From Eledone cirrhosa (taxonomy: Eukaryota), in the NCBI GenBank assembly GCA_964016885.1, contig OZ024740.1:217186001-217250000 (forward strand): a stretch of 64,000 nt of DNA. The letters are read 5' to 3'. The notes beneath the pieces are model-generated. The model was not told the DNA's origin. It worked only from the letters and a program-made list of their open reading frames with translations, and searched no databases. Positions 3,951 to 50,275 of this stretch are shown piece after piece (within the stretch, counting starts at the first letter, position 1; the number at the start of each line of letters is the position of its first letter). A program made the position numbers and the translations under genes.

Positions 3951-4028
<78 letters not shown>

Positions 4029-4149
4029 GGAGGTGAGTTTTATTGTAGTACAATAAAGCAATGCAGATATCGGATGAGAAGCACTCTACAGTTTGTGGGA
4101 CTGGAGTATGCATAATATAAGATCAAAAGATGGTTAAAGGAGTTCCATA

Positions 4150-4220
4150 TATTTTATTATGCGCATTTCAAAAACAAACATCATCAAGCAATAATATTTG
4201 CGTTTTCATCAGATAAAACA
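4150..4220 (-). ncRNA. Type I hammerhead ribozyme motif (mirror arm)
   Basis: Exact reverse complement of 4392-4462. Confidence 0.8.
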
Positions 4221-4391
4221 GGAGAACATGATATGAAGGCTAAAAAAAACACTTGTTGATAGTGCAGTTTTAAATCAACATATGAAAAGTGGTTTTAGAT
4301 ATCACACATCAATCTAAAACCACTTTTCATATGTTGATTTAAAACTGCATTATCAACAAGTGTTTTTTTTAGCCTTCATATCATGTTCTCC

Positions 4392-4462
4392 TGTTTTATC
4401 TGATGAAAACGCAAATATTATTGCTTGATGATGTTTGTTTTTGAAATGCGCATAATAAAATA
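4392..4462 (+). ncRNA. Type I hammerhead ribozyme motif
   Basis: Stem I TGTTTTAT/ATAAAATA; core CTGATGA (4400-4406); long stem II; GAAA (4443-4446); palindromic stem III TGCGCA; UH = TA (4453-4454). Confidence 0.8.
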
Positions 4463-4492
4463 TATGGAACTCCTTTAACCATCTTTTGATCT

Positions 4493-4529
<37 letters not shown>

Positions 4530-5302: not shown

Positions 5303-5667
5303 ACCCTAATATGTACTGAACTGTGTCCACCACTAATATTGGACTGACACTGTACTGACTTGACACTGTCACTCAACTGTGTCCACCACCTTTACCATTA
5401 ACCCTCACTGTCTTTGTGCAGCTAACTCTAACAAGGAATTATGGGGAGGTAAAGAAGTAGGGGCACTATTTCATTGTTGTGTGTTTTCAGCTAAGTCTTT
5501 CAAACTGAGATATGAATTGGAGAGAGAAAGACTTATTATGCTGACCACATTAAATATGAGAATCGGCTGAAAGGTTCAAAGGCTGACCAAGATACTCTCA
5601 TGGAATGACCAAATGAGGTTTATTTTTCAACATAGACCCTAGAAAGAAACAGTTGCTGCAATGGAGT

Positions 5668-6112
5668 TACTTCTCAGAAGACCTTCTACTGTCCAGCTCT
5701 CCTGACAGTTTCTTCTCACAAGACCTTCTGATGTCCACCTCTCCTGACAGTTTCTTCTCTGAAGGCCTTCTGCTGTCCAGCTCTCCTGACAATTTCTTCT
5801 CTGAAGACCTTCTGATGCCCAGCTCTCCCGACAGTTTCTTCTCTGACGACCTTCTACTGTCCAGCTCTCCTGAGAGTTTCTTCTCTGAAGACCTGTCTAG
5901 CTCTCCTGAGAGTTTCTTCTCAGAAGACCTCCAGTTGTCCAGCTCTCCTGAGAGTTTCTTCACAGAAGACCTTCTGTCCAGCTCTCCTAGAAGACCTCCA
6001 GCTGTCCAGCTCTCCTGACAGTTTCTTCTCAGAAGACCTTCTGCTGTCCAACTCTCCTGACAGTTTCTTCTCAGAAAACTTTCTGCTGTCCAGCTCTTCT
6101 GACAGTTTCTTA
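5668..6112. repeat. ~42-bp minisatellite, ~10-11 copies
   Basis: Unit CTCTCCTGACAGTTTCTTCTCAGAAGACCTTCTGCTGTCCAG in tandem, with length variants. Confidence 0.9.

Positions 6113-6903: not shown

Positions 6904-6936
<33 letters not shown>
6190..6936. repeat. Long compound (TA)/(TATG)/(TG) microsatellite
   Basis: Directly visible; source of many spurious Y/I/H/T-rich ORFs. Confidence 0.95.
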
Positions 6937-6959
6937 GAAATCGTGTGTTGAAACAAATG

Positions 6960-7080
6960 TTGTTATATTTGGGGAGGGTCATATTGTTATAATATTGCCA
7001 GAAATAATAATAAAACTGAGTCTGTTTTATTATTATTTCTGGCAATATTATAACAATATGACCCTCCCCAAATATAACAA
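6960..7080. repeat. Perfect 57-bp inverted repeat with 7-nt loop
   Basis: 6960-7016 is the reverse complement of 7024-7080. Confidence 0.9.
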
Positions 7081-7310
7081 TATATATATATATATATATT
7101 TATATTTCTGTGTATATGAGTATAAATGTTTGGTTGTGTATAAAAGTATATAATTAGACATAAGTATACAGCAGCATATAAGTATACAACTATATAGATA
7201 TATTTATACATAATTTATACACAACTTTTCATGTATGTATATCAATTGTTTATTGTTTGTATAGTTAACATTTAAATTTCATGCCTCCAAATTTATTTTT
7301 TTATCTTCAG

Positions 7311-7386
7311 AAACCTGTCCATGAAGAGTTCCAATCTTAGTCAGGATCCTTCATTATTTGGTGATAATTTGAATGCCAGTCTAAGA
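7311..7386 (+). CDS. Internal coding exon of a Ser-rich nuclear-type protein (NLSMKSSNLSQDPSLFGDNLNASLR)
   Basis: Polypyrimidine-CAG acceptor and GTAAGT donor; ends in phase 0, matching the exon at 13519. Confidence 0.65.
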
Positions 7387-7569
7387 GTAAGTTTTATCAT
7401 TGAACACTTAATGATTGACAATTTGGTTATTTGATTTATTTGTGAAATGATTGTTTATATTGATCCCATTCTTTGTACTTCATATTCTTAAAATTCACAA
7501 AGTTGTCTATCGTTATTGAAAACTTGGTTACATGGTAAATTGATGAAGCATTGTATTTTATTTCTAAAA

Positions 7570-7600
7570 ACTAGCAGAAATACCTGGCATTGCCTGGGCT
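7570..7600 (-). mobile_element. Helitron 3' terminus
   Basis: Reverse complement CCCAGGCAATGCCAGG hairpin followed by CTAG-T; same motif as at 18590 and 58796. Confidence 0.55.
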
Positions 7601-9439
7601 AAGGATTCTGATTTTGTCGTGTTGGTGATATGACAAAAAGCACCCAGCCCACACTGTAAAGTGGTTGTGTTGGTATCATTGCAAAAAGCACCCAGCACAC
7701 ACTGTGAATGTGGTTTCTGTTCGGAAAGGCATCCTGCCATAGAAACCAAGTCAGAATCAGTTTTGTATGAACAAGACACAATCACTTGATCTCATTTGTC
7801 TTAAAATGGGATAATTCATCTAACCCATGCTAGCATGGAAAAATGGATGTTAAACAATAATAATGGATTGAATGTTGTTGTGAATTAATGTCATAAAGTA
7901 ATTCATATAGTAAAGCGTCTTGATAAACTATGCTTTGTGATTTGTCTATATAAACTTACTAATTACGTATAATTCTCAGAAGTAATGAAACGTTTATCAC
8001 TTGGATGGAGAAAAAAATGCGATAATGTAACATGCATAATATATAATAATCTATGCTATTCCACTTCAGTAATTAGTGCTTTTTCTTTAGCTATGTTACA
8101 GAACATAGACAGAAACAAGAGAAAGTGTAAGCACATACATACACACACATGTGCAAGGGAAGAAGTAGTTGGGAATGGTTCACTTTGGAAAGATTTCATA
8201 GGAGATTATAATAATGTGAATGAATAAACATAAAAAGGACTAAAATGGGAGGAAATGACTGTTTGGGAGGTTGGCTTATATATGCCATCTAAACAATATG
8301 TTGATTAGCTGCCTCAGTTTATAAACTGGGTTGGGTTTTTGCCTATTTCTCAGACATAAAATGGGGAGGGGGGGTCTTATATTCGGATCGGCTTATATTC
8401 AAGTATATATGGTACTTTGTGTGGTTTTCTAATAATTTTAGAGATAGTCAAGAATTTGGGGGGATTTAGTAAAATAATGAACTTCGGCATAATTAAGCTG
8501 CTGTTTGGAGCGCAACTTAAAGGTTCTTAACATAAAATTATGATGGAAGGTTTTTAGATAAATACAAACACTTTAAAATAATCAACTTAGTAGCATAGAA
8601 TCAATAACAGTTTCAGGTAGATTGGTATCAAAAGTGTTTCAAAACATATTACAGTTAACATGGGAAGAATATTATTTAGGTTAATACTAGGATGTGGAAT
8701 TACTCAAGGAATGATGTTTGGCTATGACTAAATTATCTTCTCTTACATAATATTTGGCACCTTATGATTTTGTGAAAAATTTAAAAGAACTAGAATGTAG
8801 GTGTAGTTTAAGTGTTACAGTTGTAGGAACAAAAGATCAACCTCCTTGTAGAATTAGCATGTAAGAGGCTGAGTATTCCACAGGCAGGCACACTCTTAAC
8901 ATAGTTATCATGTAGAGTCAACATAATATAGTGACAAGGCTGACCCTTTGAATTTCAGATACAACTGATTTATGCCCACTGAGTGGACTGGAACAATGTG
9001 AAATAAAGTGTCTTGTTCAAGGATACAGCCCTTTATTGAGAATCGAACTGATGGCTATATGATCATGAGCTGAACAACTGAACATTAAGTCATGCACTTT
9101 TACCACTAGATTATAGGGACCGATATACAGTAGCTCAGAATTAGATAACTAGGGATTTATTTCTATGTAACACATCTAATTTAAAAACTGCAGAATGTGT
9201 TTGTCATATTGATGAGAAAAGGTCTAATGATGAATGTGGCTAAGAGGTAACATATAGTTAACTCTTAGTAACCAAGAAACTGTAAGAGACAGTATTTAAC
9301 ACTTAATAACTAAGAAACTGTAATTTAGCAGTAGCATGCAGTTGATAGCTAAGAGGCAAAATATAAAATTATCTCTAGTAATAGTTTGTCTTAACTTGAT
9401 ACAAGAAACTATATACAACTGCTATTAATTAAAGGAATG

Positions 9440-9615
9440 GCGGTGGATTGGCAGTATCAGTAGAGGTTTGGACGCCATGCTTTGACGCATAGAGTTACAG
9501 CCCTTGCCATTCTGAGTTCAAATCCAGCTGAGGTTAACTTTGCCTTTCATCCTTACGGGGTCGATAAAATCAAGTACCAGTAATGCACTGGGTGATTGCT
9601 GGCTTTGTGCCAGCA
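9440..9615 (+). mobile_element. MetaSINE-like SINE, near full length
   Basis: A and B boxes plus Meta-type core; 16-bp TSD ATTAATTAAAGGAATG at 9424-9439 and 9616-9631. Confidence 0.9.
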
Positions 9616-10419
9616 ATTAATTAAAGGAATGATAGGAATGAGACCCTTATCATTAAAGCACCAAAGAAACCTCCTACAAGATCCAGCTTCATAGGAGGCT
9701 GGCAAAACTTATGCAGGTGTAAGTTGTAACAACAACCATCACAACAATCAATTAAATAAATTGACCACTCTATACATTCTGATTTTCAATTAAGAATAAA
9801 TTTACCAGATATACTCAAATATAAGCCAAGAAATATATGACAAAATAAAAAATTGATGGTAAAATGGGGGAGGTCTAAGATGGGGTAATTAGATAATGAG
9901 GGGGAGGGGAAGTATTAAGTTGGGGGGGGGGAGCTATATTGGGTCACATGTTATATATGTGTATATTTATATATATCATCATCTTTTAATGTCCATTTTC
10001 CACACTAGCATGAGTAGGACGAGTTGACCCTTTGGGAGAGAATCAGGCCAGAGGACCGTGTTTTGCTCACTGGGGGGGGGGGGGGGGCTGATTTGGGCTT
10101 GACTTCTACAGCTGGATGCCCTTCCTAATGCCAACCACATTTACAGTGTGTACTGGGTGCTTTTTGTCATGTCACCTACACGCCCACATTGCAGTGTTGA
10201 CTGGGCACTTTTTGTCATGTCGCCGACACAACCACTTTACAGTGTGGACTGGGCGCTTTTCTCTTGACAAATGGGGGGCCACTACATGGTGTGGAATGGG
10301 AAATAGGGAGGAAGCTTGAGGAAATTGCGGACATAGGTAATAGGGGAGGAATGGTTACTGCAAATGGAGGTGTGTGGGAGGGGAGAAGGTAGAGGAATCT
10401 GTTGCCTATTAAATATATG

Positions 10420-11676
10420 CCTCAGCTCAAGCATATGGAAGGACAGGTCTTCTGTAGTACTGCATATCGCCATAGGCTGCAGTCCTGTGTCATTGCCTTG
10501 GTGAGATGTAATTTTGCAAGGTCAGCTTTTATTACCTCATTCCAAGTCTTCCTAGGCCTGCCCACTCCACGGCTACCATCAACTTTGAGCGCTCTGCACC
10601 TTTTTATACAGCTGTCATCCTCCATATGCATCAAATGTCCATACCAATGCAATCTCCTCTCCTGCATGCAACAACTGATCTCTCTTATGCCTGATTTCTC
10701 ATACAGTACATTTATACTTAGCCATTCATGTATATTACCATTGCACATCCAGTGAAGCATGGAGGCTTCATTTCTTTCCAATCTTCACAGTGTCCAAGTC
10801 TCAGTGCTGTGTAACATTGTTGTTTTTATACATGTATCATTCAGTCTGCCTTTCATTTTGAGGGAAAAACCTTTTGTAGTTAGTAATGGTAGTAACTGCC
10901 TGAACTTTCTCCAACCCGATCTTGCTCTGGTTACTGTGCTTTCATAACACCCTCCCCTACTACTGATTTGGTCACCCAGGTAACAGAAACTATCTACTAC
11001 TTCTACAGAGCCCTCTGGTCATTTAAAGGTGATTGTATGCTGAGGGTACTTGTTACTTAATGCCCCTATGCCCCAGCCACAAGTAAAACCTACATTCTTT
11101 GTTAGCCTGCCTGAGATCCCACTATATCTCTTGTGTACCCATTGCTTGCATTTGAGACATAGAATGGAATTTCTCCCTGCTCCTTTTCTGCACACTGAGC
11201 AGGGCCATTTCCCAGAGGAGATCTGGGCCCTGTTTTCTCTTTTACTTACTAGGGCTTTAGTCTTTGCTAGGTTGACTTTAAGACCTTTAGATTCTAGGCC
11301 GTGCTTCCAGGTTTGGAATTTCATCTTTAACTCAGCTATAGATTCAGATATAAGGGTTAGATTATCAGCATACAGAAGTTCTCATGGGTAGCCAGTCTTA
11401 AACTCCTCCGTTATTGCCTGCAGAACAATAATAAACAGGAGAGGGCTAAGAACAGAGCCCTGATGGACACCAACCTGCACGCTAAATTCTTCGCAATGGT
11501 CATTGTTAATTCTGATCTTGCTGACTGTTCATCTATACATGGCTTGAACTGCCCTCACAAGCCATTCGTCAACTCCTAGTTTTATAAGAGCCCACCAGAT
11601 AATGGAACGGGGGACTCTGTTAAAAGCTTTCTCTAAGTCGACAAAAGCCAAGTAGAGGGGTTTACTCTTAGCTAGG
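10420..11676 (-). mobile_element. RTE-clade LINE, 5'-truncated and degenerate
   Basis: RT motifs FVDLEKAF, QGSVLSPLLF, LLYADNL; C-terminal RRLHWYGH...GRPRKTW. Confidence 0.9.
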
Positions 11677-11924
11677 TATATATATATATATTTTTTTTTT
11701 CACTTCAACTTTACTATAAATGAAAAATGTTATTACATTAATCTGCATATCTAGGATTGTAGTGAATATTGTGAAAATATAACCAAAGTTGGGGACTGGT
11801 TGTAATATACAAAATTATATACAGATTTTAGATATTATTGAAAGGTGACTCTTACAAGATTAGTTCTGTGAAGAAATCACCAGATATCTTTCTGACGATT
11901 TCTTCACTGGATGCATCAGAAGTA

Positions 11925-12120
11925 TCATATATACTCGAATATAAGTCTATCCCACTATTTTATGCCTAGGAACAAAATAAAACAAACTTTATTCATGTAG
12001 AATTTGAAGTTGGTGAAAATCGTCAAAATATTGATCCTGAATATAAACCGATCCCCTTCTATCATCGATTTTTTTTTAATTTTGTCACATATTCCTTTGC
12101 TTATATTCGAGTATATACAG
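11925..12120. mobile_element. Tc1/mariner (Tc2-like) MITE
   Basis: TIRs ..TATATACTCGAATATAAG and CTTATATTCGAGTATATACAG with TA flanks; related ends at ~8390-8412 and ~9805-9825. Confidence 0.75.
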
Positions 12121-12423
12121 TAGTTTAACACTTTCAATTGTTACCAATTATCTCTTTCAGCCCAGTGTTGAGCACAGCCAGAGACTCAAAGCTGGTTGGA
12201 TAAACCTTTTATGGGTTTCTTGTTTTATTCCATGACATACGTGTGCAATCATTTAAAATACAAACCAAGGAAATGTTAAATGAGGAATGTTAGATGGGAG
12301 TGTAGGTGTGAAAATGTTATGCTTTATGATGAGAATTATATTATTTGACAAAAGCTTTACAAACAAACTTAAAACAAAAAAAGAAAATAGTAAGAAAATA
12401 TTGAAAATAATATTTTGACTTAA

Positions 12424-12645
12424 TGTGGTGAATTAGCAGAATTGGTTGAGTGTCAGACAACATGCTTTGTGGCATATAGTTATGGCCCTTTACATTCTGT
12501 GTTCAAATTCTGCTGAGGTTAGCTTTGCCCTTCATCCTAACAGACTCAATGTAATAAAGTACCAGTAATGCACTGGTTTCGATTTAATCGGCTTTCTCTT
12601 CCCAAAAATATTTTTGACTTGTGTCTAAATAAGAAACTATTATTA
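12424..12645 (+). mobile_element. Diverged MetaSINE-like SINE
   Basis: GTTCAAATTC B box, CTTTGCCCTTCATCCT core and AATAAAGTACCAGTAATGCACTGG. Confidence 0.75.
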
Positions 12646-12659
12646 TCATTATTAACGAA

Positions 12660-13495
12660 ATCTTACAATGTCCTTTGGGGAGACTCTGGGCATCAATGAA
12701 AATCAAGTAGCCAATCTCTTTAGGAGAACTTTCAGGCCAGGGCCCATGGACAACTTCTAGAAATCCCTGGCCTGGCAGTGCTACTGAGGAGCTTTTCTAG
12801 TTCAGGATAAACTCTACAGGCATGGAAGTGCTGTAAATCGGGCCTGTCCGCAGTGTGAACAGGGCGATGAAACTGTTCTGCACATACTTGTCATGTGTCC
12901 GAGTATTGCTGACCTGTGGGTTCATGTCGAGCACCTGCTGTCACGTGTAGGATGGATCCGACTATCAACTGAGTCCATTGTGAAGATTACCCCCACCATC
13001 CTCCTTTAGAGGGGAAGGACAGGCAGGATTTTATCTGCCTGGTGGCCACGGCGAAAGAGGTCATGTGGTGGACGCATTTGAAAGGGTTGAAGACAACCAT
13101 TTTCTTCTTTGGCGAAGCCTTGATTAACTTTTTCAGATTTTACTTGAAGAGGAAAATGAGTGTGGGGAGGGAGGTGCTGCCTTCCAGTCAGTTTGTTAAA
13201 AGATGGGGGGAGAGTGGCGAGCATGGTCTGTGGGAAAGGGCCTGCCTTGAGCATATGCCTGTAGATGGGAGTAGAAAGACTGGCTGAGGGAGCTTTGCCC
13301 TAGCGGACAGGGTGAGCGTGGCTTTTGTGGGATTTCTACACAAGTGACCCTTAGAGTCTCCACAACTTTGGGGAAGCTGTTATGTTTGTTTTAAATGTTT
13401 ATTTTCATAGTCTCTTTTATAAATTTTATTTTACGCAAAGAAAAACCCACTTGTCTTTAATGTGAGCTCTGTGTGGCTAATAAAGAAATCATTAT
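12660..13495 (+). mobile_element. Tx1/L1-like LINE 3' fragment (zf-RVT region)
   Basis: Homologous to 30070-31090 (KSLAWQCY..ACPQCE..DETVLH); ends AATAAAGAAATCATTATT; flanked by ATT repeats. Confidence 0.75.
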
Positions 13496-13518
13496 TAATG
13501 AAATCTTTCCAATTTTAG

Positions 13519-13652
13519 GCTGCACTTGGAGAGAATAATCTTTCCTTAATTTCAAATGGTCAACTATCTGCTGGAGAGGTTGATGGTGTAGAAGATTTAT
13601 CAATGAAATCTCAAGGAAGTCATTTGGGAAACCTCAATACAGAATCTATCAG
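13519..13652 (+). CDS. Internal coding exon of the same gene (AALGENNLSLISNGQLSAGEVDGVEDLSMKSQGSHLGNLNTESI)
   Basis: TTTTAG acceptor and GTAAGT donor; 134 bp; phase-2 end joins the exon at 14057 in frame. Confidence 0.75.
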
Positions 13653-14056
13653 GTAAGTTGTTAATGGAAATTATGTCAAATTGTCTTCAAATGTCAAACT
13701 AACTGGGTTAGGTCTTGAAAGGACTCATGACTAACCATAGCATTATGCCTCAAGGAGGTGAATCGGCAGAGTCATTAGAACATCAGATAGAATGCTTTGT
13801 GGTATTCATTTCAGCTCTCTGCTTTCTGAGTTCAAACTCTGCTGAATTCAACTTTGTCTTTCATCCTTTCAAGGTTTGTTTAAAGAATCCTAGCATGATT
13901 ATAAATTTATTCAGTTTTAATAACAAACATATGTGTATGTGTATGTGTTTAGGAAGTGGTATGTCTATGTCAGTTTGTGTATCCATAAAGTTATCAATCA
14001 ATTAGTTTATTCTGTAATTGATGGCTAATTATAGTTCTTTTGTTTTATTATTTCAG

Positions 14057-14654
14057 TGAAGAGGAATTGTTGTTGAGCATCAAACAAGAACCACCATGTG
14101 AGATTGAAAGTAATGGTATGAATAATCACTCCTCCTCCTCATCAGCATCACTATTGCGCCCATCAGAACTGGCTATGTTGGGTTCATCTGCAGATACAGG
14201 CCTAATGTCTGCTACAGAAATATCTGCAATGGTTGGTGGAGCAACAAAAGGCTCAGTTATGGTTGGTGGATCATCAAAAAGCTCAGTAATGTGTAACCAT
14301 GCTAGTAACCACTCAAATATGTCACCATCAATTCTTTGTCCAACCTCAAACACTTCACTATTGTGTTCTACTGGTGACGGTCCATCGAGCATGTGCTCGG
14401 TATCGAGTGAAGCAGGCATGATTAGTCAGTCACCTGATCCATGTCCATCACCTACAGACAGTGTAGCAACAACTGAAGCTAAAGATAGTGCAGTTGATTT
14501 CTCAATGGTTGATGAAGCAGCAGCACCACTAGCACCACCACCATCATCATCACCACCACCATCACCAATGTCTGCATCTGATAGACTAGAATCTAATCTA
14601 CGAAATCCTTCATCTTCTGCTAGTCATTTGGCTTCACATTCCCCAGACGCATAA
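14057..14654 (+). CDS. Terminal coding exon, Ser/Pro-rich low-complexity C-terminus of a probable transcriptional regulator
   Basis: TTTCAG acceptor; open frame EEELLLSIKQEPPCEIES...SHSPDA*; followed by a long AT-rich, microsatellite-rich putative 3' UTR. Confidence 0.75.
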
Positions 14655-23850: not shown

Positions 23851-24997
23851 TATATTTGTGTGTGTATGTTCATCCATATGTGCATGTAGATATGGATGTG
23901 TATACATAAATACTCATTCTTTTGTAAACATATATTGTTATATATATATATATATATATTTTATATAAATACAGAGAGAGAGAGTTAAGAAAATTAACAA
24001 ATAAAGGACAAAACAACAAAACGAAAAACAATTTTTCAAGGGAAAACCATAAAAATTATTTTTTTAAATTAAATATACAAACAAAGGACACAGAACTCCA
24101 TGGTCATCGGCCGTTGAGACAAAAGACAGAACAGTAATCTTTAGCCGTTAAACTACAAAACATGTACAATTATGTGTGGCTTTAGGGAAAATGTCTGGTA
24201 CCTCATATAGCATGTGAAACAATGAAAAAGAAAACAAGAAAAAAGCAAGAAGAATAAAGTAATATATTGTGTAAGAAAATGTAAACCATTACAATAAATG
24301 GAGGACTAGGGAAAAGCACGTTCTCCACATTAGTAGATAAACTTAAGAAAATTATGTACATGTATATACATATACAGAAAACCCGCCTTCCCTACGTGCA
24401 AAGTTAACCTACAGTTAGTAGGCCCCTCTTAACCAAATATCCCAATCCACCACCCCTACTCCATCCTCCCACTCCCACCTACACCACCCTTTCTCTGTAA
24501 AGTTATGTTGGCACCACGAGATCCTGTAGGTGTCACAAAAAAAAAAAACAGACAGTCCATGCTGCTATGTGGCCGTGTAGGAAACATGGTAAAAAGGTTC
24601 CCAGTCCACACTGTAAATTTGGTTGGTGTTACGAAGGGCATCCAGCCATAGAAAACCTGCCAGATACAGTTCTATACGAGCAAGACACAGTAACCCGGTC
24701 AATCTTGCCTCAAGTGGGACTATTCCCATCTAACCCATGCTAGTGTAGAAGATAGACGTTAAACGATGATGATAATGACAACGATGATATATATTGTTTT
24801 ACTTTGGGAGGGTCATGTTGCCAATAAAAAGAAATCTTGCGAAACAAATTCATATATATATATATATATGTAGGAGGTGAGTTTTATTGTAGTACAATAA
24901 TGCAATGCAGATATCAGGTAAGTAGCACTCTACAGTTTGTAGGACTGGAGTATAAATAATAATATATAAGATCAAAAGATGGTTAAAAGAGTTCCAT

Positions 24998-25070
24998 CTA
25001 TTTTATTATGCGCATTTCAAAAACAAATATCATCATGCAATAACATTTGCGTTTTCGTCAGATAAAATAG
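24998..25070 (-). ncRNA. Type I hammerhead ribozyme motif (mirror arm)
   Basis: Reverse complement of 25187-25259. Confidence 0.8.
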
Positions 25071-25186
25071 GGAGACATGATATGAAGGTTAAAACACACT
25101 TGTGAATAGTGCAGTTTTAAATCAACATATGTTGATTTAAAACTGCACTATTCACAAGTGTGTTTTAACCTTCATATCATGTCTCC

Positions 25187-25259
25187 CTATTTTATCTGAC
25201 GAAAACGCAAATGTTATTGCATGATGATATTTGTTTTTGAAATGCGCATAATAAAATAG
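25187..25259 (+). ncRNA. Type I hammerhead ribozyme motif
   Basis: Stem I CTATTTTAT/ATAAAATAG (9 bp); core CTGACGA; long stem II; GAAA; TGCGCA; TA cleavage site at 25249-25250. Confidence 0.8.
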
Positions 25260-26195
25260 ATGGAACTCTTTTAACCATCTTTTGATCTTATAAATTATTA
25301 TATATATATGTATGTACATATAGAGGTATATGAGTTATCGTTTTCTGTTACTGTAGTTTAAGAGTTAAAGTAACCCTTATCAAGGACTATCTCAGCATAC
25401 AGTGGTTTTTGACTCAACAAAAGGGTTGTTGCAGGTCGATTATAGGGTGATCCTTAGATGGTTCAGTAATCCATGGAATAAATACAAATAGGTAAAGATT
25501 TATGCAGTACACTGTACAATAGGATTTATTTCAAGCATTTACATATATTTCATTGATATGTATGGAAACCCTTCTGGAAATCACTAATCCCAATAATCTA
25601 TTGGGAAAAATCAAATTCAAATATGGTGACAAATTTTTTTTAACTCCAGGCACATCAAATTATCAAAACAGAATAAGGACTTGTATTGGTTAGGATCTTA
25701 TAAGAAATGTGTAGAAGGGAAAAGGAGGAGACATAAGAAAGAAAGACATAAAAGAGAAAGAAAAACACTAAGTAAGCATATACAGAGTGTTCAAAGTAAA
25801 TATTAGATGTTGTTGTCTGCTTGTTGAGGATGGATATTCCAGCTGGCCGCAGTTCATCAGAGTTAATAGAATTAGCTGCTGATTGATTGAAAGTGTTTTG
25901 TTGTATTGACCAATGGCTATTTTGTCCTAGAATCTTGCTGACATTCACCATTGATTTCTATGGATCTGAAAAGGTATTAATAATTTTATAGGTAAGCAAT
26001 TGCTATTGTTTTGTGGCCATTGTAATAAGACTTAGCTTAATGTTCTTTTATATTATACCTTTCATGTGCACTTTAACATTACACTAAGTCTTATTAGAAA
26101 TGGCCATAAAACAATGGCAATTTCTTAGTAGTAGTAATGGTGGTGGTGATGGTAGTATTAGTATCAGTGGTGGTGGTGGTAATAGAAGGAGAAGG

Positions 26196-30069: not shown

Positions 30070-31089
30070 TTTCTTTATTGGCCACAAGGGCTGACATCAA
30101 GAAAAACAGACGGAACAGGACGGTACGATGTGGGTTTTGTGCGTGTAAATATTTTTATTATTTATATAAGAAAAGAAAAAAGACATAAAACATATATATA
30201 TATATATAAACAATAAAATGAAAATTGAAACAATGAAAAATTCCCCAATAGGGGGGAAACCTCCGAGGGTTACACGTGGCGAAAACCACACAAAAGACCA
30301 CGGCCACCCTGACTACCAGGGCAAGCGCCCTCTCTCAATTTTTCCATCTCTCAAACTACAGACGTATATTCAGAGTGGTCCCGTTCACTCGGACCATTCT
30401 CGCTACATTCACCCACCTTTCAACAAACTTGCTAGAAAGCAGCACTTGCCTCTCCACCCTGATTTTCCTCTTCAAGTGAAACTTGAAAAAGTTAATCAGG
30501 GATTCGCCGAAGAGGAAAGTGTTTGTCTTTAATCCTTTTAACCTTGTCCACCACACAATCTCTTTCGCCATGGCCACCAGGCAGATGAAAACCGCCTGCC
30601 CTTCCTCCTCAAAGGAAGACGGCGAGACCATCTGCACAATGGACTCAGTCGACAACCGGATCAGTCCCACACGTGACAGCAACTGTTCGACATAGCTCCA
30701 CAAGTCAGCAATGCTCGGGCACTGAACGAGTGCGTGCACAACGGTTTCGTTGCTATGCGCGCATCTCGGACAGGCTCGGCTGACGGCACTTCCGTGCCTG
30801 TAGAGCTTATCTCGAACCGGCAGCGCTCCCCGGTAGCACTGCCAGGCCAGGGATTTTTGGACGTTATCCATAGGCCCCGGGCTGAAAGTTCTCCGGAAGA
30901 GAGCAAGCAGCTGATCTTCTTCGACGCCCAGGATCTCTCCGAGAACGTCGTCGCTCTTCCCCTCCACTAGTCCTCTATAGAACGCCGAGGTGGATGTTCC
31001 ACCGATACTGGTGCCCAACTGGGAGAGGGCAGTGAGTGCCTGGAGACATTCCAGTTTCCAAGCGCTATCCCTCGGTCTTTTTCTGACCC

Positions 31090-31090
<1 letters not shown>
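30068..31090 (-). mobile_element. Tx1/L1-like LINE 3' fragment inserted in (TAA)n
   Basis: ORF 30356-31135 contains zf-RVT-like ACPRCAHSNETVVHALVQC; 3' end AATAAAGAAATC(ATT)n; (TAA)n on both sides. Confidence 0.85.
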
Positions 31091-31123
<33 letters not shown>

Positions 31124-31157
31124 ATAATAATACATACAACAGTAATAATAATAATAA

Positions 31158-31589
31158 TGATTTCATTTATTAGCCACCAGGGCCGACATGTAGGGGACAA
31201 TACAAAGACAGGGACAGTGGGGGTTTACAATAAGGTGGAGTAAAAGTGCACAATGGCAAGACTAATTTAACAATGAAAATATAAAAATATAAAATAAACT
31301 ATGCATAAATATAACAAAATAAATTCCCCAATAGAGGGTGTACGACCCTGGGGTGCTTCAGGTACCCCACCAATCCTGAACCACCCTGCGTTTCTAGGGC
31401 ACCCAGGGAGAGCACCCCTCTCCTCAAGTTAGCCAGCCTATAGGCGCATGGTCAGAGTAGGCCCATTCACACGAGCCATTCTCGCCACATTCACCCACCT
31501 TTTAGCAATTGTACTGGAGGGCAGCACTTCTCTCTCCACCCTCACCTTCCTTTCCAGGTGAAACTTGAATAAGTTGATGAGGGATTGGC

Positions 31590-32759: not shown

Positions 32760-35700
32760 TTGACACAAAAATCACCGGGAGTGATGAAATCACCGGTGGT
32801 TATGTAACCATACATTCACCAATCCTCGATAAGAGTGTTTAAATGTCGAACCTAAACAGTTCGAATAACGGTGAAGTGGAGACTAGAATGTCATGTGACA
32901 GACTCTCACCCAGCAGGTGCTCCCTGGCTCAGCAGCAGGGACCTGGCTGTCAACCAAATACTGCTGGTGTCGGAGGAAGAAGAAGAAGGAAAGGGACCAG
33001 AACCAACTGGACGAAAGAATTGAATAGAACTGTTATGCAATGTTACCTGAAAAGTAATCCCAAGGAGAAAGGCTATAGGAAACGGATGCATAACATCTGG
33101 AACGAGATTGGTCTATTTAAATTAGATGAACAAAAATTGGCCGGGCAGGTTCGGGTAATAAGAACTAATGGGTGGATAAGCGAGCTGGAACTGGAGGAAC
33201 TGAGCAGAGAGATTAGCCTGGAAATGGAGAGTGGAGTATGCCAGGCAAACGAGCCAGTGGGAAATGAAGGTGAAGAGGTTGAGAGAACGGAGGAACCATC
33301 CGAAGCAGACAATGATCTGAATGCTGAAATAAATAATACCTGGAACAAAGATACGGCCATTGAGGAGATGAATGCTGACAAGATTTGGTTGATATCCTAA
33401 ACTTAGTGGTATGTGAATTGAATAATGATAGTGGGAAACCTATGAACCTAAGATTTGTAGACAGGAAAAAGTTAAAAGAAACAACAGCTAAGGTAAACAA
33501 AGTCATCCCATACCTTGAAGCTAGGAGCCTTCACCAGTGCAACAATATCCTCAAAGCAACAGCAAATGCGGTGAGGAAATTACTTGGTATAAAAGCGAGA
33601 GGAAACAACAAACAAGAAAGATCAGAGCCTTGGTGGAAGAAACGACTGAGTGGTCAAATCAGAGAAATGAGAAATGACATTGGAAAGCTTGAGTCCCTAC
33701 TGAATGGGACACTAAAAAACATAGACACTAAAAATAGATTGGAAATAAAGTACAAAACTAGGAGGAAAAAGTTAAATATTATCATAGAGGAACTGAAGCA
33801 ACGCATTGTAGCAAAGAGTGCAAAAATTAGGCGATACGAGAGCAGAGTCAGTCGGTATAGACAGAACCGCATGTTTAACAACAAACAGAAGATGCTGTTT
33901 GGACAGCTTGAGGGGAAAGAAAGAGGCAACGACTTGATCCCTGAGGCGGAACAAACTAAAACATTCTGGAGAGGAATATGGGAGCAGGATGTTAAACATA
34001 ATGACCAGGCAGTGTGGATTGAGACAGTACAGAAGGAGATTAGTGAACAGGCACACCAACAAACTGACTTGAGTATCACAGTTGAAACTCTTAAGGGGCA
34101 GGCCAAAAAACTAACCAACTGGAAATCACCAAGCCCAGATGGTGTGCAGGGGTATTGGATTAAAAATATAACATCCCTCCACCCGAAACTGACAACCATG
34201 TTCAATGACTGCTTGATGTCAGGTGAGGTACCAGAGTGGTTGACAAAAGGTACCACAGTTCTGGTAATGAAGGACCGAATCAAGGGTAATGATGTTACCA
34301 ACTATAGACCTATCACATGTCTGTCCGTAATGTGGAAACTGTTGACAAGCATTATGTCTGAGGAAATCTACCATCACCTCCACACAAACAACTTGTTACC
34401 GGACGAACAGAAAGGATGCCGAAAGAAGTCCCGTGGTACAAAGGACCAGTTACTTATTCATAAGATGGTAATGAGGAATTGCAAGAGGAGACACACTGGT
34501 CTTGCCATGGGATGGATAGACTACAAAAGGCATTTGACATGGTGCCTCATTCTTGGATCACCAAAAGCCTAGAGATCTTCAAGGTGGCAGATAACATCAG
34601 ACAGTTGTTGGGCAAAAGTATGAAGTCCTGGGAAACAGAGTTAACATCAGCTGGAGAATCCTTGGGAGGCGTGAAGATCAAGAGAGGTATCTTCCAGGGA
34701 GATAGTCTGCCCCCTCTGTTGTTTGCCCTTGCTCTGATGCCTCTGACCATTATACTGCGAAAAGTGAGAGCAGGATACAAGTTGGGAAAGGGAGAGCTTA
34801 CCATCAATCACCTCCTCTTCATGGACGATCTTAAGCTCTTCGGGAAGAGTGAGAAGGAGTTGGATGTGCTTGTTGACACTGTCCGTATTTTCAGCAATGA
34901 TATATGTATGCAATTTGGTATTAGTAAGTGTGGAGTCCTTGTGATGAAGAGGGGGTAAATTGAGCAGAAGCAACGGAATCCAGGTACCAACAGGTGAGAT
35001 GATAAAGGAAATTGTCACTGAAGAAGGATACAAGTATTTGGGTGTTCTGGAGGCTGATGACATCAAGAACAAAAAAATGAAGGAATTGATAAGAACTGAA
35101 TACATTCGGAGAGTAAGGAGCGTATTAAAGTCACATCTGAACAGTAGGAATGCCATAAGTGCAGTAAATTCCCGAGCTGTGTCTATTATTAGGTACAGTG
35201 CGGGAATTCTGAGATGGAATGTTGCTGAACAAAAAGAAATGGATAGGAAGACTAGGAAGCTATTGACTATCTACAACATGTTCCACAAGAGCAATGATAT
35301 CGATAGACTCTACTTAAGGAGATCTGAGGGTGGAAGAGGTCTTATCAGCATAGAGGACTGTGTTCAGATGGAGAAAAACAACCTACACAAATACGTGACT
35401 GATAGTAAGGAGCCAATGCTCAGAACTGTACTGAAGGAGAGGACAATAGACCAGGGGGTGTCCAAGGAGGAAATAACAACAAGGAGAAAGAGCAGCCTTC
35501 AGGAAAAATCCCTTCATAGTACCTTCTTTGAGAAAACTGAATTCAGAGATCCACAGACATGGAACTGGTTGAAAAGAGGAGACCTTAAAAAGGCTACAGA
35601 AGGAATGTTAATGGCTGCGCAAGAGCAGGCCCTCAAAACGAAGTGGTTGAAACACCATATTTACAAGGAGGAGGCTAGCCCACTGTGCAGGATCTGTGGA

Positions 35701-36320
35701 GAGAGAGAGGAGACTGTGGCTCACATTGTATCCGAGTGTAAACACCTAGCCCAGACTCACTATAAGGGCTGGAGACATGATGTGATGGGCAGGGTGATCC
35801 ACTGGCACCTATGCAGAGTAAACAATTTACCACATTCTGAGAAGTGGTATGAGCATAAGCCAGAGTCGGTGATAGAAAACGATCAGGTGAAGGTGCTGAA
35901 ACTGGACAAAAAACTGGAACACAATAGACCTGACCTGGTGGTTTTGGACAAAGAAAAAAATCGTGCCTGATTGTGGATGTGGCCTGCCCATTCGACACGA
36001 GAGTGCAAGAGAAGGAGAGGGAGAAAATTAACCGATACCAGGACTTAAAGTGGGAGGTAAAAAGGATTTGGAACTGCCATGAAGTCAAAGTGGTCCCGAT
36101 TGTCATAGGCGCACTAGGTACTATCTCAAAAAGTTTTCAGGGATGGTTAAAGAAAATTGGCCCCTTCACGCTTTTTGGAACGCTTCAAAAGACATGCTTG
36201 CTGGGAACAGCAAGAACCCTCCGATACGTCCTGAATATCTGAGGCTGCAGGTTGTGGCTTGATATTCATTTCAACAAACTTTCAAGTTAACTAACATCAA
36301 TGACTGAGACTCAAAGAACA
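32760..36320 (+). mobile_element. R4/Dong-like non-LTR retrotransposon with restriction-like endonuclease, near full length, frameshifted
   Basis: N-terminal RTNWT..GYRKRMHNIW; RT motifs NYRPITCL, GIFQGDSL, LLFMDDLKL; CCHC CRICGEREETVAHIVSEC; RPDLVVLD..DVACPFD..EKINRYQDL; ends in (TAA)n. Confidence 0.9.
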
Positions 36321-36974: not shown

Positions 36975-39880
36975 TATTATGTACAGTGCTCAGGTGCACT
37001 ACAACTCATCAAAGGTGCATGTATAGTACATAGAATAATATACAAATGTCACGGAAATGAATAGTGTATGAGTCATGATATACATGTGTGCATGTGTATG
37101 GAGGGGGAATATTAGGTGTAGTGTTGGCGAATCTCAGAAAGCATGGAGGTTTTAAAGGATGCAGTGTCTCGGCAGCTAACAACTGATGCAGGTAGTTTGT
37201 TCCATGCTTCAACAACTCTGAGCGTGAAAAAATGTTTCCGAAAGTTATGGGAGCTGTGCTGTTTTCTGACTTTGTGGGCATGCCCACGTGTGTTAGATAC
37301 ATGGAAATCAAAAAGGTACTCAGGATTGTTGTTTGCAAGATGGTTAGTAATTTTGTGGGTGTTTACCAACTCAGTTGCCAGACGTCGGAGCTTCAATGTA
37401 TCGATGCCCAGGGAAGCAAGGCGTTCAGAGTATGGTAGACGCCTGATGGAGGGTATTCGCTTGGTTGCACGTCCCTGAACAGTTTCTAGGCAGTCAATGT
37501 TCTGAGCAAGATAGGGGTTCCAGACTGGTGATGCAAATTCTAAGTGTGGCCACACCATAGCTATATACAGCTTAAAATAGATAGCTGGAGAGCAGCTGAC
37601 AAAGGTCTTTCTGAGTGATGCTAAGACACCCTCAGCCTTCTTGACAATTTTAGAGACATGCTTCATCCAACGCAAATCGCTGCTGACCGTAATGCCCAGG
37701 TCACATTAACAAGAAGACTTCTTGATATTAGTGTTGTGGAGGGAGTATGTGGACGCTGGGTTTTTACTCCCAAAATGCATGGTGGTGCACTTGTCCACTG
37801 CTAGCTTGAGTTGCCAGTCTGAGATCCATTGTTGCATTATGTCCAGGTCAGATTGCAGGAAAGATCTATAGTGTTCAGGATCTGTCCTTTTTATCTCAAG
37901 GTACAGCTTGATGTCATCTGCGTACTTCAGTACTATGGCATTCTTTAAGTTGGCATCTATGTCATTAATATATGCAACAAACAAAAGGGCCAAAACAGAT
38001 CCCTGTGGTATACCAGATGACATCTCATATGGTGAGGAATGCTGTCCTAGAACCGTGACTACCTCTCTTCGACTGAGAATGAAGGACTTTAACCAGTTAA
38101 AAAGATTATCCTTCACACCCATTGCAGAGAGTTTTGCCATAAGTCTTTTGTGTAGCACAGAATTGAAAGCTTTAGCAAAGTCAAGGTAAACAACATCCAC
38201 CCATGAGCCACCATCAGTGATCCGGTGATGTCTACAAGAAACTCGATAAGTTGATCACAGCAGCTGGAGTTAGGGATAAATCCAAATTGCGAGGGCCGGA
38301 AAAGACTGAGAATTCCAGAAGTTCCAAAGCGTTTCTCTGACACAGGATTCCATCAGTTTGGCGATGCAGCTAGTAAGACTGACTGGACGATAGTTCACAG
38401 GTGATGTGCGGTCACCTTTTTGAACAGAGGAATTACACTGGCAGTTTTTAACTGTTCTGGAGTAGCACCGTTGTTCAGACTGAATTGGAAGAAGCGTGAT
38501 AGCTGGTACAGAAGGAAGTACCCACCACGTTTGAGAAGCAGGTACGTAACACCACCAAGACCAGAAGAGGCATGGTTGCGTTTATTTTTAAGGTGATATC
38601 GGAGCATTGCAGGTGTAAATTCCATAGTTGTAATAGAATCCGATGTCAGAGGTGGTGGAGACGGTACACTCTGGTCTTCAATAGTGAAAATGCCTGCATA
38701 GCATTCAGCAATGAGCTCCGCGCATTCCTTGGGGTCGTCAGTAACCTGGCTTGTGTGGGGATTGCGAAGAGAACCAACTGGGGAGTGAGGCCTCTGCTTT
38801 GAGTGAACATACTTCCAGAACACCTTACTGTCAGGGCTGGTTGCTATGCGCTGCTCAAATTGAAGCACTCCCTTTTTTGTCACCTGTTTGAGATGGTTGG
38901 ATGATTTATTTCGCTTCTTCCTATTGATATCTGATTTATGCAGTTTGTACTCACGTTCAGCATTACAACATTCTTTTCTGGCAAGACGGACTGCTGCAGT
39001 CTTCCAAATTGCACTTTTGGGATGTTTTTTCTGTTTACATGGCATCGATGCTGCACATGCTGTCCATATTGAGCTCAGGATGTTCTGGAGTACAGTGTTC
39101 ACATCTCCAGAGTCGTAGAACTCAAGCCAGTTTGGACGTTGCACCTCGGTGCAGTAACAGTTCCAGTCTGCTTTATTCCAGTCAAAGTGAGCAGTTTGGA
39201 GATGGTTGTGGTTTTTGTTACTGCCCATGAGGGATAGATTGGCAATGATCATAGCATGATCAGTCACCTAAAGGTTCCTCAGTAGTAACACTAATAACCG
39301 ATTCAGGAGTAGTGGTGAAGAGTAGGTCCAAAGTGTTGTCACCTCTTGTTGGGGGGGGGGGGGGGTGACTACTTGGGACCAATTCGAGTCCAGCACTAGC
39401 TCAAGGAAGTCATTTGCACTTGGCGGCCATCGAAAGGTTTCCCAGCCAATCTCAATGTGATTGAAGTCCCCTGCAATAAAAACATAAGTGGCCGTTTTCC
39501 TGACAGCAACTCTGATGATATCACAAAGTTGAGTGTCCTGGTGGTAATTTGGGGGACGGTAAACGACTCCAAGTAGCAGTGTTGTCATGGTCATACGTAT
39601 ATCGCAGAAAAATACTTCCTGCTGCGATTGGTTCAAATCAACACAAGGAATTGCCGAAACATTTGAGCAAACGTAGACCATTACACCACCACCACAACGA
39701 ATAATGCAGTCTTTACGAAACAAGTTGTAGCCAGTTATGCTGAAAACCCCATCACAGAGTAAAGAATGTGCCCATGTTTCCGCGATGTAATGAAGTCAGG
39801 GTTGATACTTTTGATGTAGGAGTCAAAATGATGAATGTTATTGCATAGACTACGTGCATTCAAGGACAACAATTTGATCT
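36975..39880 (-). mobile_element. CR1-clade LINE ORF2 (APE + RT), degenerate
   Basis: GGGV..YV, GVVYRPP, AGDFN; YLDFAKAF, PQGSVL, YADD; PHLEFASPVWNP, TRGH, FFTLRVVEAWNKLP. Confidence 0.92.
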
Positions 39881-42940: not shown

Positions 42941-44127
42941 TTACACTCATTGATCCATTTTGCACTAACTCTGCATCAAGCACCCTCACCTAAATATTAA
43001 CCAATCAAGGATCCAATACAGCTATCTGATGGATGAGTATTGTATAGTGCCAAAAACGAAACCAATCAGTTTAGCAGAAAGTTTCCAGACAAGAAACACG
43101 CATATTTTGCTATCCTCAAACACGTTTACACATGGCATGAAATATAACTAATCCGAGATGGCTAGGTTTCATCTTCTAACTGGATATACGAAATCCATTA
43201 TGTCTTGACAACAACATGAGGTAACATTATGTTATTCACAGACACACTTTGTACACTGTTCCATATCAGAATGTATTTCCTTCGTCACATTCACAAACAG
43301 TATTGAAAATATGTTCTTCGGCAAATAAAAATGTTTTGTTCATAATATTTCAACTAGCGATTGATCTACTCTACGCACGACCACCATAAATTAATGACCA
43401 GCTCAACACAAGTATTGGTAGAGCGTCAGACACCATGCTTTGCAGTATTGTTATGGTCCTTTGCATTCTAAGTTCAAATCCTGCCGAGGTTAACTTCGAC
43501 TTTCATACTTACTAATTCGATAAAATAAAGTACCAGTAATGGACTGCCGTAATGGATTTGTGCCGAAAAATAGAAACACTATTAATGTGCAATAAGAGCA
43601 AAATATAACGACATTGCTCAATTATTTTATCTAATGTTGTAATAACACAAGGAAATGTTGTTTGTGTATTTTTTTTAATATTTGCTCATAGGCTTTTACA
43701 ATTTCGCTCAGCCAACAACTATTAAAAAGTGAGTTGCTTAAGATAACAATTTAATCACAAATTGTTGCTATCTTTTAATACACTCCAACAAGTCATCAAA
43801 TTATGTACAATAAAAACAAATCTTATTAATTTGCTCAGGGAATATAAAGAAAATGTATATACACTGATAATTGCAATTGTATGTAAATATTTTGTTTTTG
43901 TATTGTTTATTTTATGTTTTCTATTATGTATAATATATTGATTTAATATTGATTGCTTTTTGTAGTTGTTTATATTAAAAGTCTGAAAATATTTTTATAC
44001 ATCCTACACTAATATTTATAAGATAATTTATAATAACAATTACATAATCTAATTACATTACAACGATAATTTATTATTAATATATATCCTGTTTAACTAG
44101 AGTTATTACAAGCGTTGCCTTAAAAAA

Positions 44128-45098
44128 ATATTAAACTAGACATGAAAAATGCGCAAGCTCAAAAGTGCCACAGAATGTTATAATAAACCTTCAAAAGTGT
44201 GGGACTAGAGTTGTTGCTAAAAAATATTGTAATCATTATATATCGTACATTCTGTGGCATCCTTTATAAAAATAGCTTAAACCAACGAAGCCTTTATTTT
44301 TACGCTATTTCACTTAGTTAATTCTTAGAGTGTAACATATAAAAATAAATACATCTATGTTTAATGTAATAACAGCTATAAATAATTACGTAATATTATT
44401 ATCATATACTCATAGTAACAAAATAATTGTGTTGAAAATTAATATGATGCTTATATGAACGATCAAATCTATAATGATAATTTCTTAAATATACTAATAG
44501 TAAAATAATTTAGTTATCTATTGTTACATTTTCATAGAACTATAATATTAACAATCGTATTGCATTATCAAATTTTTATCACTACAAACTTTCATATTGG
44601 AATTACCTTAAGCCACTTATTATTACTTCGCTTTCATACTTTTACAGCTGTAGATATTGCGCTGTATCTTATATCTAATATCAATATCTCATGGTAATTT
44701 GCATGCAGTGTAAAATAGGTTTATTAATAACTTTAATATGAAATGTATTATACAGGGCTGCGGAGTCGGCCAAAAATTGACTGGCTCCAACTCAGGATCC
44801 GATACTCCATTATTTCCTAAATTTCAGCTCCGCAGCTCTGTTATTATATTAATTAATTTATTTTATAGTTGTAAATCATATTTTTATATGTTACACTCTA
44901 AGAATTAACTAAGTGAAATAGCGTAAAAATAAAGGCTTCGTTGGTTTAAGCTATTTTTATAAAGGATGCCACAGAATGTACGATATATAATGATTACAAT
45001 ATTTTTTAGCAACAACTCTAGTCCCACACTTTTGAAGGTTTATTATAACATTCTGTGGCACTTTTGAGCTTGCGCATTTTTCATGTCTAGTTTAATAT
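44128..45098. repeat. 220-bp inverted duplication (arms 44128-44347 and 44879-45098)
   Basis: Arms are reverse complements, with no mismatch found by eye. Confidence 0.9.
44753..44840. mobile_element. 88-bp hAT-like MITE
   Basis: TIRs CAGGGCTGCGGAG and CTCCGCAGCTCTG; flanks GTATTATA and TTATTATA (7/8 TSD). Confidence 0.7.
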
Positions 45099-45461
45099 GT
45101 TACATTTGTATTGGTCTATTCACACCACCATGGGCTATAAAACGCATGTCTTTTCTCTATAACATGCGTGTTTTCTTAATTATCTGATATATTTTTAGAA
45201 ATGTTGATCGTATTGATAGGCATATGCTGATGAGCCACATCTAACAATATATATTCTTCACTTTTTATAGCAAAACATAATTAGATGGTTAGTACACTTT
45301 AATATATTCTTTTAATTGATTTATATTTACCATTCCTTCCATAGTTAATATGTTCATCACTCTGGCAGTTTTTGATCCCCTATGATTGAACACATAGAGA
45401 TATGTGTACTCCTCTCTATATGCTGATTTATAAAGAGCCCGGGACCTATTCCTTGAGCTGA

Positions 45462-49373: not shown

Positions 49374-50275
49374 GTATTAAATTATGTCAGGGACTTTTAA
49401 CGTATGACACCGGTGTCTTTTAGGAGAGTGAAGTATTACCAACGACACCGACTTCGCGGCATGTTAATTATAACTTTAATTAATATTATTATATCTTTTG
49501 TAGTAATTATTTCATGTTAAGTTGAATGTTAGTATTTTGTGGATAACATAAGGTGAGCTACATGTTTCAGGGTAGGTGTTCCATCATCTATATGATTAAA
49601 TATTTCATTTTATGAGAAACTACGCTACATCGTGAATTGGTTGTTCCACATTTGACAAGACAGTGAAAAATAGGTTTAAATCACCAACATCTGAACAATT
49701 AGCTTTCTTAACTTTACACTTAGACTTGAAATATAAAATACGTATTATTTGTAACACAGCAGATATTGTGTACTTTTCTACACTCCGTGGTAATCAATCC
49801 TTGTTTATTAGGTCAACTCATCTATACGGAAATAAACACACGATCATATAGACCGCCACCTCACCCCCGAATATATATATACACACACACATTTTCTTTC
49901 CCGACATCAGTCTTACACATTTGTATCAACTGAGAGTTCCATTACAATTTGTAGAAGAACGACTATTTTAACAGAACATCTGCATTCAGTCATTTATAGA
50001 CAATATATATGTTATACTCCATAGCGACCATTAACGATAGTCACATATTTTAAACAAAGAAATAGAAGTATTTTTCTCTACAACAATATATATGTACCAC
50101 TTGGAGAGGACTCACTTTGCTACAAGAATTCTAGTGGTATGTAGAAAATATATCTACATTGCATATTTTCCACACATGTAAGCATAGTTCTATGATATCT
50201 AAGACAAGAAATTGAATTGTAATATATTATAAACACAGATATTTCTCAACTTTTACGAATTCTTCAAGAATTACT

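Follow-up and report, generated by a model that had tools for sequence, protein, structure and literature searches.

Insertions of Penelope-like elements (PLEs) are described as 5'-truncated, often accompanied by an inverted truncated copy, tailed at one end and biased toward (TA)n (Craig et al., 2021, PMC8557442). In the inverted pLTR insertions of EN+ PLEs, a 5'-truncated copy stands head to head with its partner, with a palindrome at the junction, a tail at one end only and (TA)n as target (PMC3846280, PMC8557442), and Arkhipova et al. (2013, PMC3846280) read the junction palindromes of such head-to-head arms as self-priming. Elements of the Hydra clade, which includes Hydra-1_Obim of Octopus, also target (TA)n and carry a canonical type I hammerhead about 100–190 nt from their 3' ends (PMC8557442), and Penelope-13_HM has the same hammerhead on both strands (PMC8557442 supplement). 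In purified form, a PLE protein cleaves the two strands of its target, extends each of them and prefers AT-rich DNA, and its reverse transcription starts on uncut RNA at two sites that bound the tail (Frangieh et al., PMC11167929). How PLEs come to form head-to-head repeats that are tailed on one side only is described as an open question (PMC8557442; PMC11167929). In Schistosoma mansoni, dual minimal hammerheads lie on opposite strands 100–700 bp apart and were read as truncated PLEs; they are of type I, with a palindromic stem III and an enlarged helix II (Cervera and de la Pena, 2014, PMC4209133). Animal non-LTR retrozymes are likewise non-coding, about 300 nt long, low in GC, PLE-related and equipped with a type I hammerhead (PMC7229834; bioRxiv 10.64898/2026.07.22.740005).

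The octopod unit reported here shares these traits and departs from each system in a different way. It has no ORF between its arms and a tail of 86 nt, whereas published PLE tails measure 30–40 nt. Its helix II is paired at 15 of 16 positions, compared with no more than 9 bp among the 34 entries of File S2 (PMC8557442) and 7–8 bp in S. mansoni, and it further differs from the S. mansoni hammerheads described in PMC4209133 by an 8-nt palindrome in stem III, an A-U pair at 10.1-11.1 and the lack of a bulged base after A9. Retrozymes form direct tandems that give rise to circular RNAs, whereas the octopod unit is a head-to-head pair with a one-sided tail. The occurrence of a hammerhead on both strands, named in the title of a first-pass annotation of this DNA, reflects no special design: it is the known outcome of an inverted 5'-truncated copy (PMC4209133; Penelope-13_HM, PMC8557442), and the headline feature of the locus, an opposite-strand hammerhead pair, has already been reported.

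We analyzed a window of 64 kb, i.e., the whole stretch of octopod DNA considered here, in which the first-pass annotation had noted a fold-back with 189-bp arms, one mismatch, an 11-nt loop and (TA)n flanks. This structure, which we call copy A, occupies positions 4026-4500 and was confirmed to the base. Its parts are as follows.

3954-4025, no strand assigned: (AT)36 microsatellite, left flank and insertion target
4026-4111, minus strand: unpaired tail of 86 nt, 3' end of the unit, present on one arm only, with AATAAA inside a short stem-loop
4112-4300, minus strand: left arm, with the element sense on the minus strand
4279-4284, no strand assigned: self-complementary hexamer CATATG, mirrored at 4328-4333, which is the apex of a second copy (copy B, below) and of one contig from sequencing run X5
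4299-4300, no strand assigned: AT dinucleotide common to both arms, the probable junction of copy A
4301-4311, plus strand: loop of 11 nt, native element sequence in the direction of the right (tail-less) arm
4312-4500, plus strand: right arm, with the element sense on the plus strand and an AT-rich end merging into (TA)n
4493-4526, no strand assigned: (TA)17.5 microsatellite, right flank

The two arms (4112-4300 and 4312-4500) pair over 189 bp with a single mismatch, G at 4262 against T at 4350, and neither the arm nor its vicinity contains an ORF. Copy A is a young insertion of a repeated kind that encodes no protein and carries a predicted self-cutting RNA motif twice, in mirror image. The continuation of the minus-strand unit to AATAAA and its end in (TA)n were also borne out, with AATAAA at 4039-4044 on the minus strand, 13 nt short of the unit end at 4026. 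This AATAAA forms one side of an 8-bp stem-loop (4038-4056) that is kept in copies A and B. Because no poly(A) follows it, it is perhaps not a polyadenylation signal, and the stem-loop may rather be a protein-binding or RT-start hairpin.

The hammerhead motifs of copy A are made up as follows.

4392-4462, plus strand: predicted type I hammerhead motif, predicted cut after A4454, with A10.1-U11.1 at the base of helix II
4392-4399 and 4455-4462, plus strand: helix I
4400-4406 (CUGAUGA), 4443-4446 (GAAA) and 4453-4454 (UA), plus strand: core boxes
4407-4422 and 4427-4442, plus strand: helix II, 15 of 16 positions paired, four of them G-U, with a GCUU loop
4447-4452, plus strand: palindromic stem III, UGCGCA
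4150-4220, minus strand: predicted type I hammerhead motif, starting at 4212, predicted cut between 4158 and 4157

The motif has the type I core of CUGANGA, GAAA and UH together with helices I–III, and the palindromic stem III lies near the 3' end. To judge it against chance, we used a descriptor that combined a helix I of at least 6 bp, both core boxes, a helix II paired at 80% or more and a palindromic stem III. It matched four times in the window, twice in each of the two copies, and in none of 300 first-order Markov simulations of the window. The complete motif that the first-pass annotation had claimed is present on both strands, and the long helix II remarked on there was seen as well (15 of 16 bp, within a 36-nt helix II region). 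The covariance-model check that had been proposed gave the opposite outcome: in Rfam, no hammerhead family matched either 1.7 kb (E<=1) or 101 nt (E<=10), and the only matches were of hairpin-type miRNAs and snoRNAs, below threshold. This miss is likely explained by the length of the helix II region (36 nt) together with a stem III that is minimal. Pattern scans for the hammerhead in other material gave no match in viral contigs and one in metagenome contigs (L001), a chance match in a bacterial-looking ORF without the helices.

Copy A is likely to lie inside an intron of the octopod FoxP gene, as the annotation had proposed on the condition that exons of a plus-strand gene lay to its left. 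Octopod FoxP exons lie downstream on the plus strand, and a stretch of 198 residues at 14058-14651 is 78–80% identical to the C-terminus of Octopus FoxP proteins.

about 7309-7395, 13519-13650 and 14052-14651 (span 7309-14654), plus strand: last three coding exons of FoxP, from protein comparison

FoxP residues 1-705 had no match within the 64-kb window. Because the upstream exon lies outside it, the intronic position is one that we infer.

The same presumed intron holds a further fold-back of like anatomy at 6935-7080, with perfect 57-bp arms (6960-7016 and 7024-7080), a 7-nt loop, a tail of about 25 nt on one side and AT-repeat flanks; its sequence is unrelated to copy A and has no hammerhead box. 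It is possibly a very short insertion of another PLE family. Elsewhere in the window, a 223-bp inverted repeat (44125-44347 and 44879-45101, 99.6% identical) encloses an AT-rich spacer of 531 nt, and two older, decayed hairpins lie at 2439-2551 and 25993-26127 (86% and 75% alike); these too are free of hammerhead boxes. Other features are a 434-residue open frame with 10–12 C2H2 zinc-finger matches (50216-51520, plus strand), several adjacent open frames of 110–300 residues at 61029-63522 on the minus strand, two of which were scanned and gave no Pfam match, a 42-nt tandem repeat at 5665-6111 (about 8 + 3 copies) that is open in several frames, and 55-nt repeats at 2086-2410.

A second insertion, copy B, was missed by the first-pass annotation and holds two of the four descriptor matches.

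24870-25301, no strand assigned: copy B, of the same family and orientation as copy A, flanked by AT repeats and lying about 10 kb downstream of the stop codon of FoxP
24870-24954: tail of copy B, 85 nt, on one side only
24965-25128 and 25129-25292: arms of copy B, perfect and loop-less
25196 (plus strand) and 25061 (minus strand): starts of the copy B hammerhead motifs

Copy B begins at the same base after (AT)n as copy A, and its short arm ends in the same AT-rich stretch. Both copies thus have an AT-rich or (TA)n target, a one-sided tail of 85–86 nt and head-to-head inverted arms that meet on a self-complementary word, AT in copy A and CATATG in copy B. The apex of copy B is a loop-less palindrome on this hexamer, and its middle is 49 nt shorter than that of copy A. 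The tails match in 78 of 86 columns. Over the shared part, the arms agree at 168 of 169 positions within copy A and at 167 of 167 within copy B, whereas arms of different copies show 11–12 mismatches and 4 gap columns, and the subfamily differences between the copies are mirrored in both arms. That arms are alike within but not between copies indicates that the palindrome was made, or homogenized, separately in each lineage. Together, the arms of copies A and B constitute 1.1% of the window bases.

The ribozyme sequences of the two copies differ at 9 of 86 nt, with no change in the core and no broken pair; besides N7 and the loop, three flanking bases are affected, as are four positions in the helices, where pairing is retained or gained.

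To follow the family in sequencing data, we considered 17 listed runs, 13 of which contained some of the stretch (no RNA run was listed among these, which has no bearing on expression), and compared four of them (X1, X15, X5 and X7) with reference positions 4026-4322. X1, from organism A and possibly the window's own sample, yielded 3,406 contigs, 929 of them at least 99% alike, and X15, which consists of raw restriction-digest reads of organism A with biased ends, yielded 5,149 reads. X5 (organism B) contributed 30 contigs and X7 (organism D) a single one. The family is large and is seen in three organisms. Peak summed depth in X1 was about 2.0 million on the arm and 0.98 million on the tail, and this ratio of roughly 2:1, although a crude measure, is what two arms per tail would give. 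Set against a depth of 5.7 on the locus-specific loop, the peak of 2.0 million is not a valid copy number and is read only as "large". We had also taken a 20-fold fall in depth at 4285-4305 for a fixed 5' end, and dropped this reading because depth rises in a like manner where the reference begins on the left. As the ramp is partly an edge effect, depth does not separate a non-autonomous short element from the truncated end of a long one.

Variation in these runs bears on the hammerhead. Among the 40 of 68 variants listed, none of the 13 variant sites in 4158-4212 fell on the 12 core positions (P=0.025), and the corresponding test over the whole arm and tail gave P=0.16. Helix II variants in the same list kept pairing in seven of eight cases, which is not significant against a transition null (P=0.15). 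Most of the family carries A-U at the helix II base, and G and C variants, unphased, occur at these two positions in X15. The conserved pair at this position is G10.1-C11.1 according to PMC4209133, and the Hydra-1_Obim hammerhead also has A-U there (PMC8557442 supplement). Among the 12 of 153 loose ends listed, some lie inside helix II at 4177 (180 reads in X15 and 1 contig in X5) and lead into other sequence; they mark a subfamily, seen in two organisms, whose putative variant hammerhead would differ in its helix II. A further subfamily diverges at 4125.

The same 12 loose ends define the ends of the unit. At the short end, loose ends of (AT)n occur at 4112 (14 contigs in X1, 297 reads in X15) and at 4115 (197 reads in X15). 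Arms that directly follow (AT)n at these positions make the short end a trait of the whole family, in which two 3' ends recur, one at 4026 and one at 4112-4115. The predicted minus-strand cut lies 43–46 nt from the short and 132 nt from the long end. A further loose end at 4300 was found in 17 contigs of X1, 168 reads of X15 and 3 contigs of X5, among those listed. Past 4300, these records continue into the reverse complement of the loop and then into further sequence, which we followed for 20–30 nt. They show that the loop is native element sequence in the direction of the tail-less arm, and they place the junction of copy A on the AT at 4299-4300. One X5 contig turns back at 4284, the position of the copy B apex.

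These data also speak to an artefact of assembly or library preparation, an explanation with next to no probability in our judgment. We saw no read bridging the apex of copy A by 31 nt on both sides, where the reference reached only 22 nt past the apex, and structures of this kind are reported to trouble assemblies (PMC8557442). Against this stand a second, diverged copy with the same layout, the native loop, the one base at which the arms differ, an X1 depth of 4–5.7 across 4306-4322, and the presence of the (AT)n short end and the CATATG apex in other runs.

If the fold-back itself were the mobile unit, as in a non-autonomous family whose palindromic loci are copied whole, the CATATG apex shared by copy B and a contig of another organism (X5) would be explained, as would the nearly identical two ends of both window copies and the fall of X15 depth near this apex from about 600 (4266-4275) to about 210 (4286-4295). 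This reading comes closest to the title that the first-pass annotation had given the element. However, the apexes of A and B differ, further opposite-strand joints occur at 4056-4282, 4094-4185 and 4119-4247 (among the five joints listed), and what distinguishes the subfamilies is found in the two arms alike. An edge effect accounts for part of the depth fall, with the same ramp at 4026-4055 in X1, and the 168 X15 reads continue past 4300. We therefore consider such palindromic masters improbable; with different apexes, and arms that match far better within a copy, the fold-back does not behave as one travelling unit.

Long inverted repeats, the lack of an ORF and TA flanks would also fit a DNA transposon of the MITE or foldback type that targets TA and carries the hammerhead motif as a passenger, and a palindromic Harbinger repeat of similar size is described in a frog (PMC5625713). 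Yet the inverted repeats are not terminal, as each copy has 86 nt beyond them on one side, the apex varies, and a full hammerhead core with pair-keeping changes would have no role, which makes this origin very unlikely. The retrozyme reading offered by the first-pass annotation fares no better. The unit of about 290 nt, its low GC and its type I hammerhead would suit a dispersed offspring of a non-LTR retrozyme that passed through a tandem array and circular RNA; such elements are known in mussels (PMC7229834) and are described as themselves PLE-derived (bioRxiv 10.64898/2026.07.22.740005). Neither of the two window loci is a direct tandem, so that the tandem-repeat test failed at both, and none of the five joints listed links the 3' end of the unit to its 5' end. 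Moreover, a hammerhead-cut circle would be permuted at the cut, and the window copies are not. We regard this source as most improbable.

By analogy with the systems introduced above, the unit very probably originates from a PLE. The view of a non-coding, (TA)n-targeting element of the Penelope type is supported by the head-to-head arms, the self-complementary junction, the one-sided tail and the (TA)n target. We give about an even chance to a specific form of this origin, in which the 3' end of a likely PLE, together with its hammerhead, was inserted as a short piece without an ORF and the second arm was made during integration into the TA microsatellite from two cDNAs. A PLE protein (RT plus GIY-YIG nuclease) supplied from elsewhere would nick both strands of the (TA)n tract. 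Two cDNAs would then be primed on uncut element RNA from opposite target strands, one at each of the start sites, which lie 86 nt apart (4026 and 4112-4115). Both would stop early, their 3' ends would pair through the self-complementary word, each would be copied on the other, and any overhang of one would become the loop.

Alternatively, a single PLE cDNA primed at the long end (4026) could fold back on a self-complementary word, copy itself and jump to the other target end near 4112-4115, the loop of copy A being flipped later by recombination between the arms. A variant of this route is self-priming on antisense RNA, as proposed by Arkhipova et al. (2013). It accounts for identical arms and for junctions on palindromic words, it places the short end on AT-rich microhomology with (TA)n in both copies, and self-priming is the published reading of such junctions (PMC3846280). 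The orientation of the loop bears on the choice between the two routes. In copy A, the loop reads in cDNA direction on the strand without the tail and is reversed on the tail-bearing strand, an arrangement that the folding back of one target-primed strand does not yield directly. A flip of the loop or a loss of the tail would have to be added, in a copy so young that its 189-bp arms show a single mismatch. This argument concerns one copy only, whose junction word AT is just 2 nt long, and loops enclosed by long arms can invert at a later time. The single-cDNA route also leaves the two-start-site, two-strand biochemistry of the PLE protein unused. We consider it unlikely, though a serious contender, and prefer integration from two cDNAs.

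No PLE partner was found: no RT or GIY-YIG ORF is attached to the unit, in the arm or nearby. Among the nine window ORFs scanned, three RT fragments were found, which are not linked to the fold-back. Frameshifted non-LTR retrotransposon remains (RVT_1, zf-RVT) at 32843-36242 (plus strand), 30356-31162 and 37112-39795 (both minus strand) are not linked to it. Among published cephalopod PLE families, the unit matched, by eye, neither the 3' ends of Naiad_Obim, _Ovul, _Omin, _Esco and _Adux nor the Hydra-1_Obim hammerhead, and three 12-mers are absent from the supplement text of PMC8557442. Naiad was considered as a partner because Naiad_Ovul is flagged "HHR_half_core", and was rejected as its 3' end is unlike the unit.

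We then computed how the RNA would fold. In the isolated motif, helix I has a probability of 0.94 and helix II of 0.99, whereas the A15.1-U16.1 pair reaches only 0.001. Two motifs are predicted to pair through the 8-nt palindrome of stem III (-41.5 kcal/mol vs 2 x -15.0), which is the arrangement described for PLE hammerheads; these form dimers and cut slowly in vitro (PMC4209133; review PMC6765202). In the element's own transcript, the hammerhead would cut only as a dimer via the palindromic stem III, and weakly. The read-through RNA has a computed folding energy of -320.9 kcal/mol and a helix II probability of about 1e-24, and whichever side transcription comes from, it reaches the antisense arm ahead of the ribozyme arm. 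With the antisense arm made first and helix II near zero, the ribozyme is predicted neither to fold nor to cut in FoxP pre-mRNA: the antisense arm would capture the ribozyme arm, leaving a 189-bp duplex as a predicted ADAR substrate. The dsRNA rod envisaged by the first-pass annotation thus stands as a prediction, whereas its mere competition with self-cleavage does not, given a helix II probability near zero in the read-through RNA.

Such duplexes have a described counterpart. According to Porath et al. (2017, PMC5625713), octopus shows an exceptional hyper-editing signal and a near-perfect dsRNA fraction, not assigned to repeats, with an excess of 4.4 per thousand loci. Heavy editing is reported in the same paper for Penelope in the lizard and for a palindromic repeat of the frog. 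Like the octopod unit, the lizard Penelope and the Xenopus palindromic Harbinger repeat form a self-folding duplex of about 200 nt that needs no neighboring inverted copy; the octopod unit differs in its retro-origin and its ribozyme, and editing there is a prediction.

The octopod family did not turn up in the literature searched, and as far as these searches show, the family is new, as are the 15 bp of its helix II, the 86-nt length of its tail and the evidence from its junctions. Repbase, Dfam and subscription papers were outside the scope of the search, and the supplements of the bioRxiv 2026 preprint and of PMC4209133 may list the family.

Rfam misses a hammerhead whose helix II has 15 bp, so that cephalopod hammerheads are probably undercounted. 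The family is also of use as a test bed, being young and having thousands of short, fully readable insertions: junction counts in one assembly could separate integration from two cDNAs from snap-back of a single one. In the broadest form of our proposal, which we hold to be rather doubtful as a whole, an ORF-less PLE-derived octopod family would have seeded tens of thousands of near-perfect 160–190-bp hairpins by two-strand priming, each silencing its own ribozyme and so tolerable in introns, and together these would make up a large share of the near-perfect dsRNA behind octopus A-to-I hyper-editing. With one copy likely in a FoxP intron, the family is a concrete candidate for the near-perfect dsRNA of octopus that PMC5625713 leaves unassigned.
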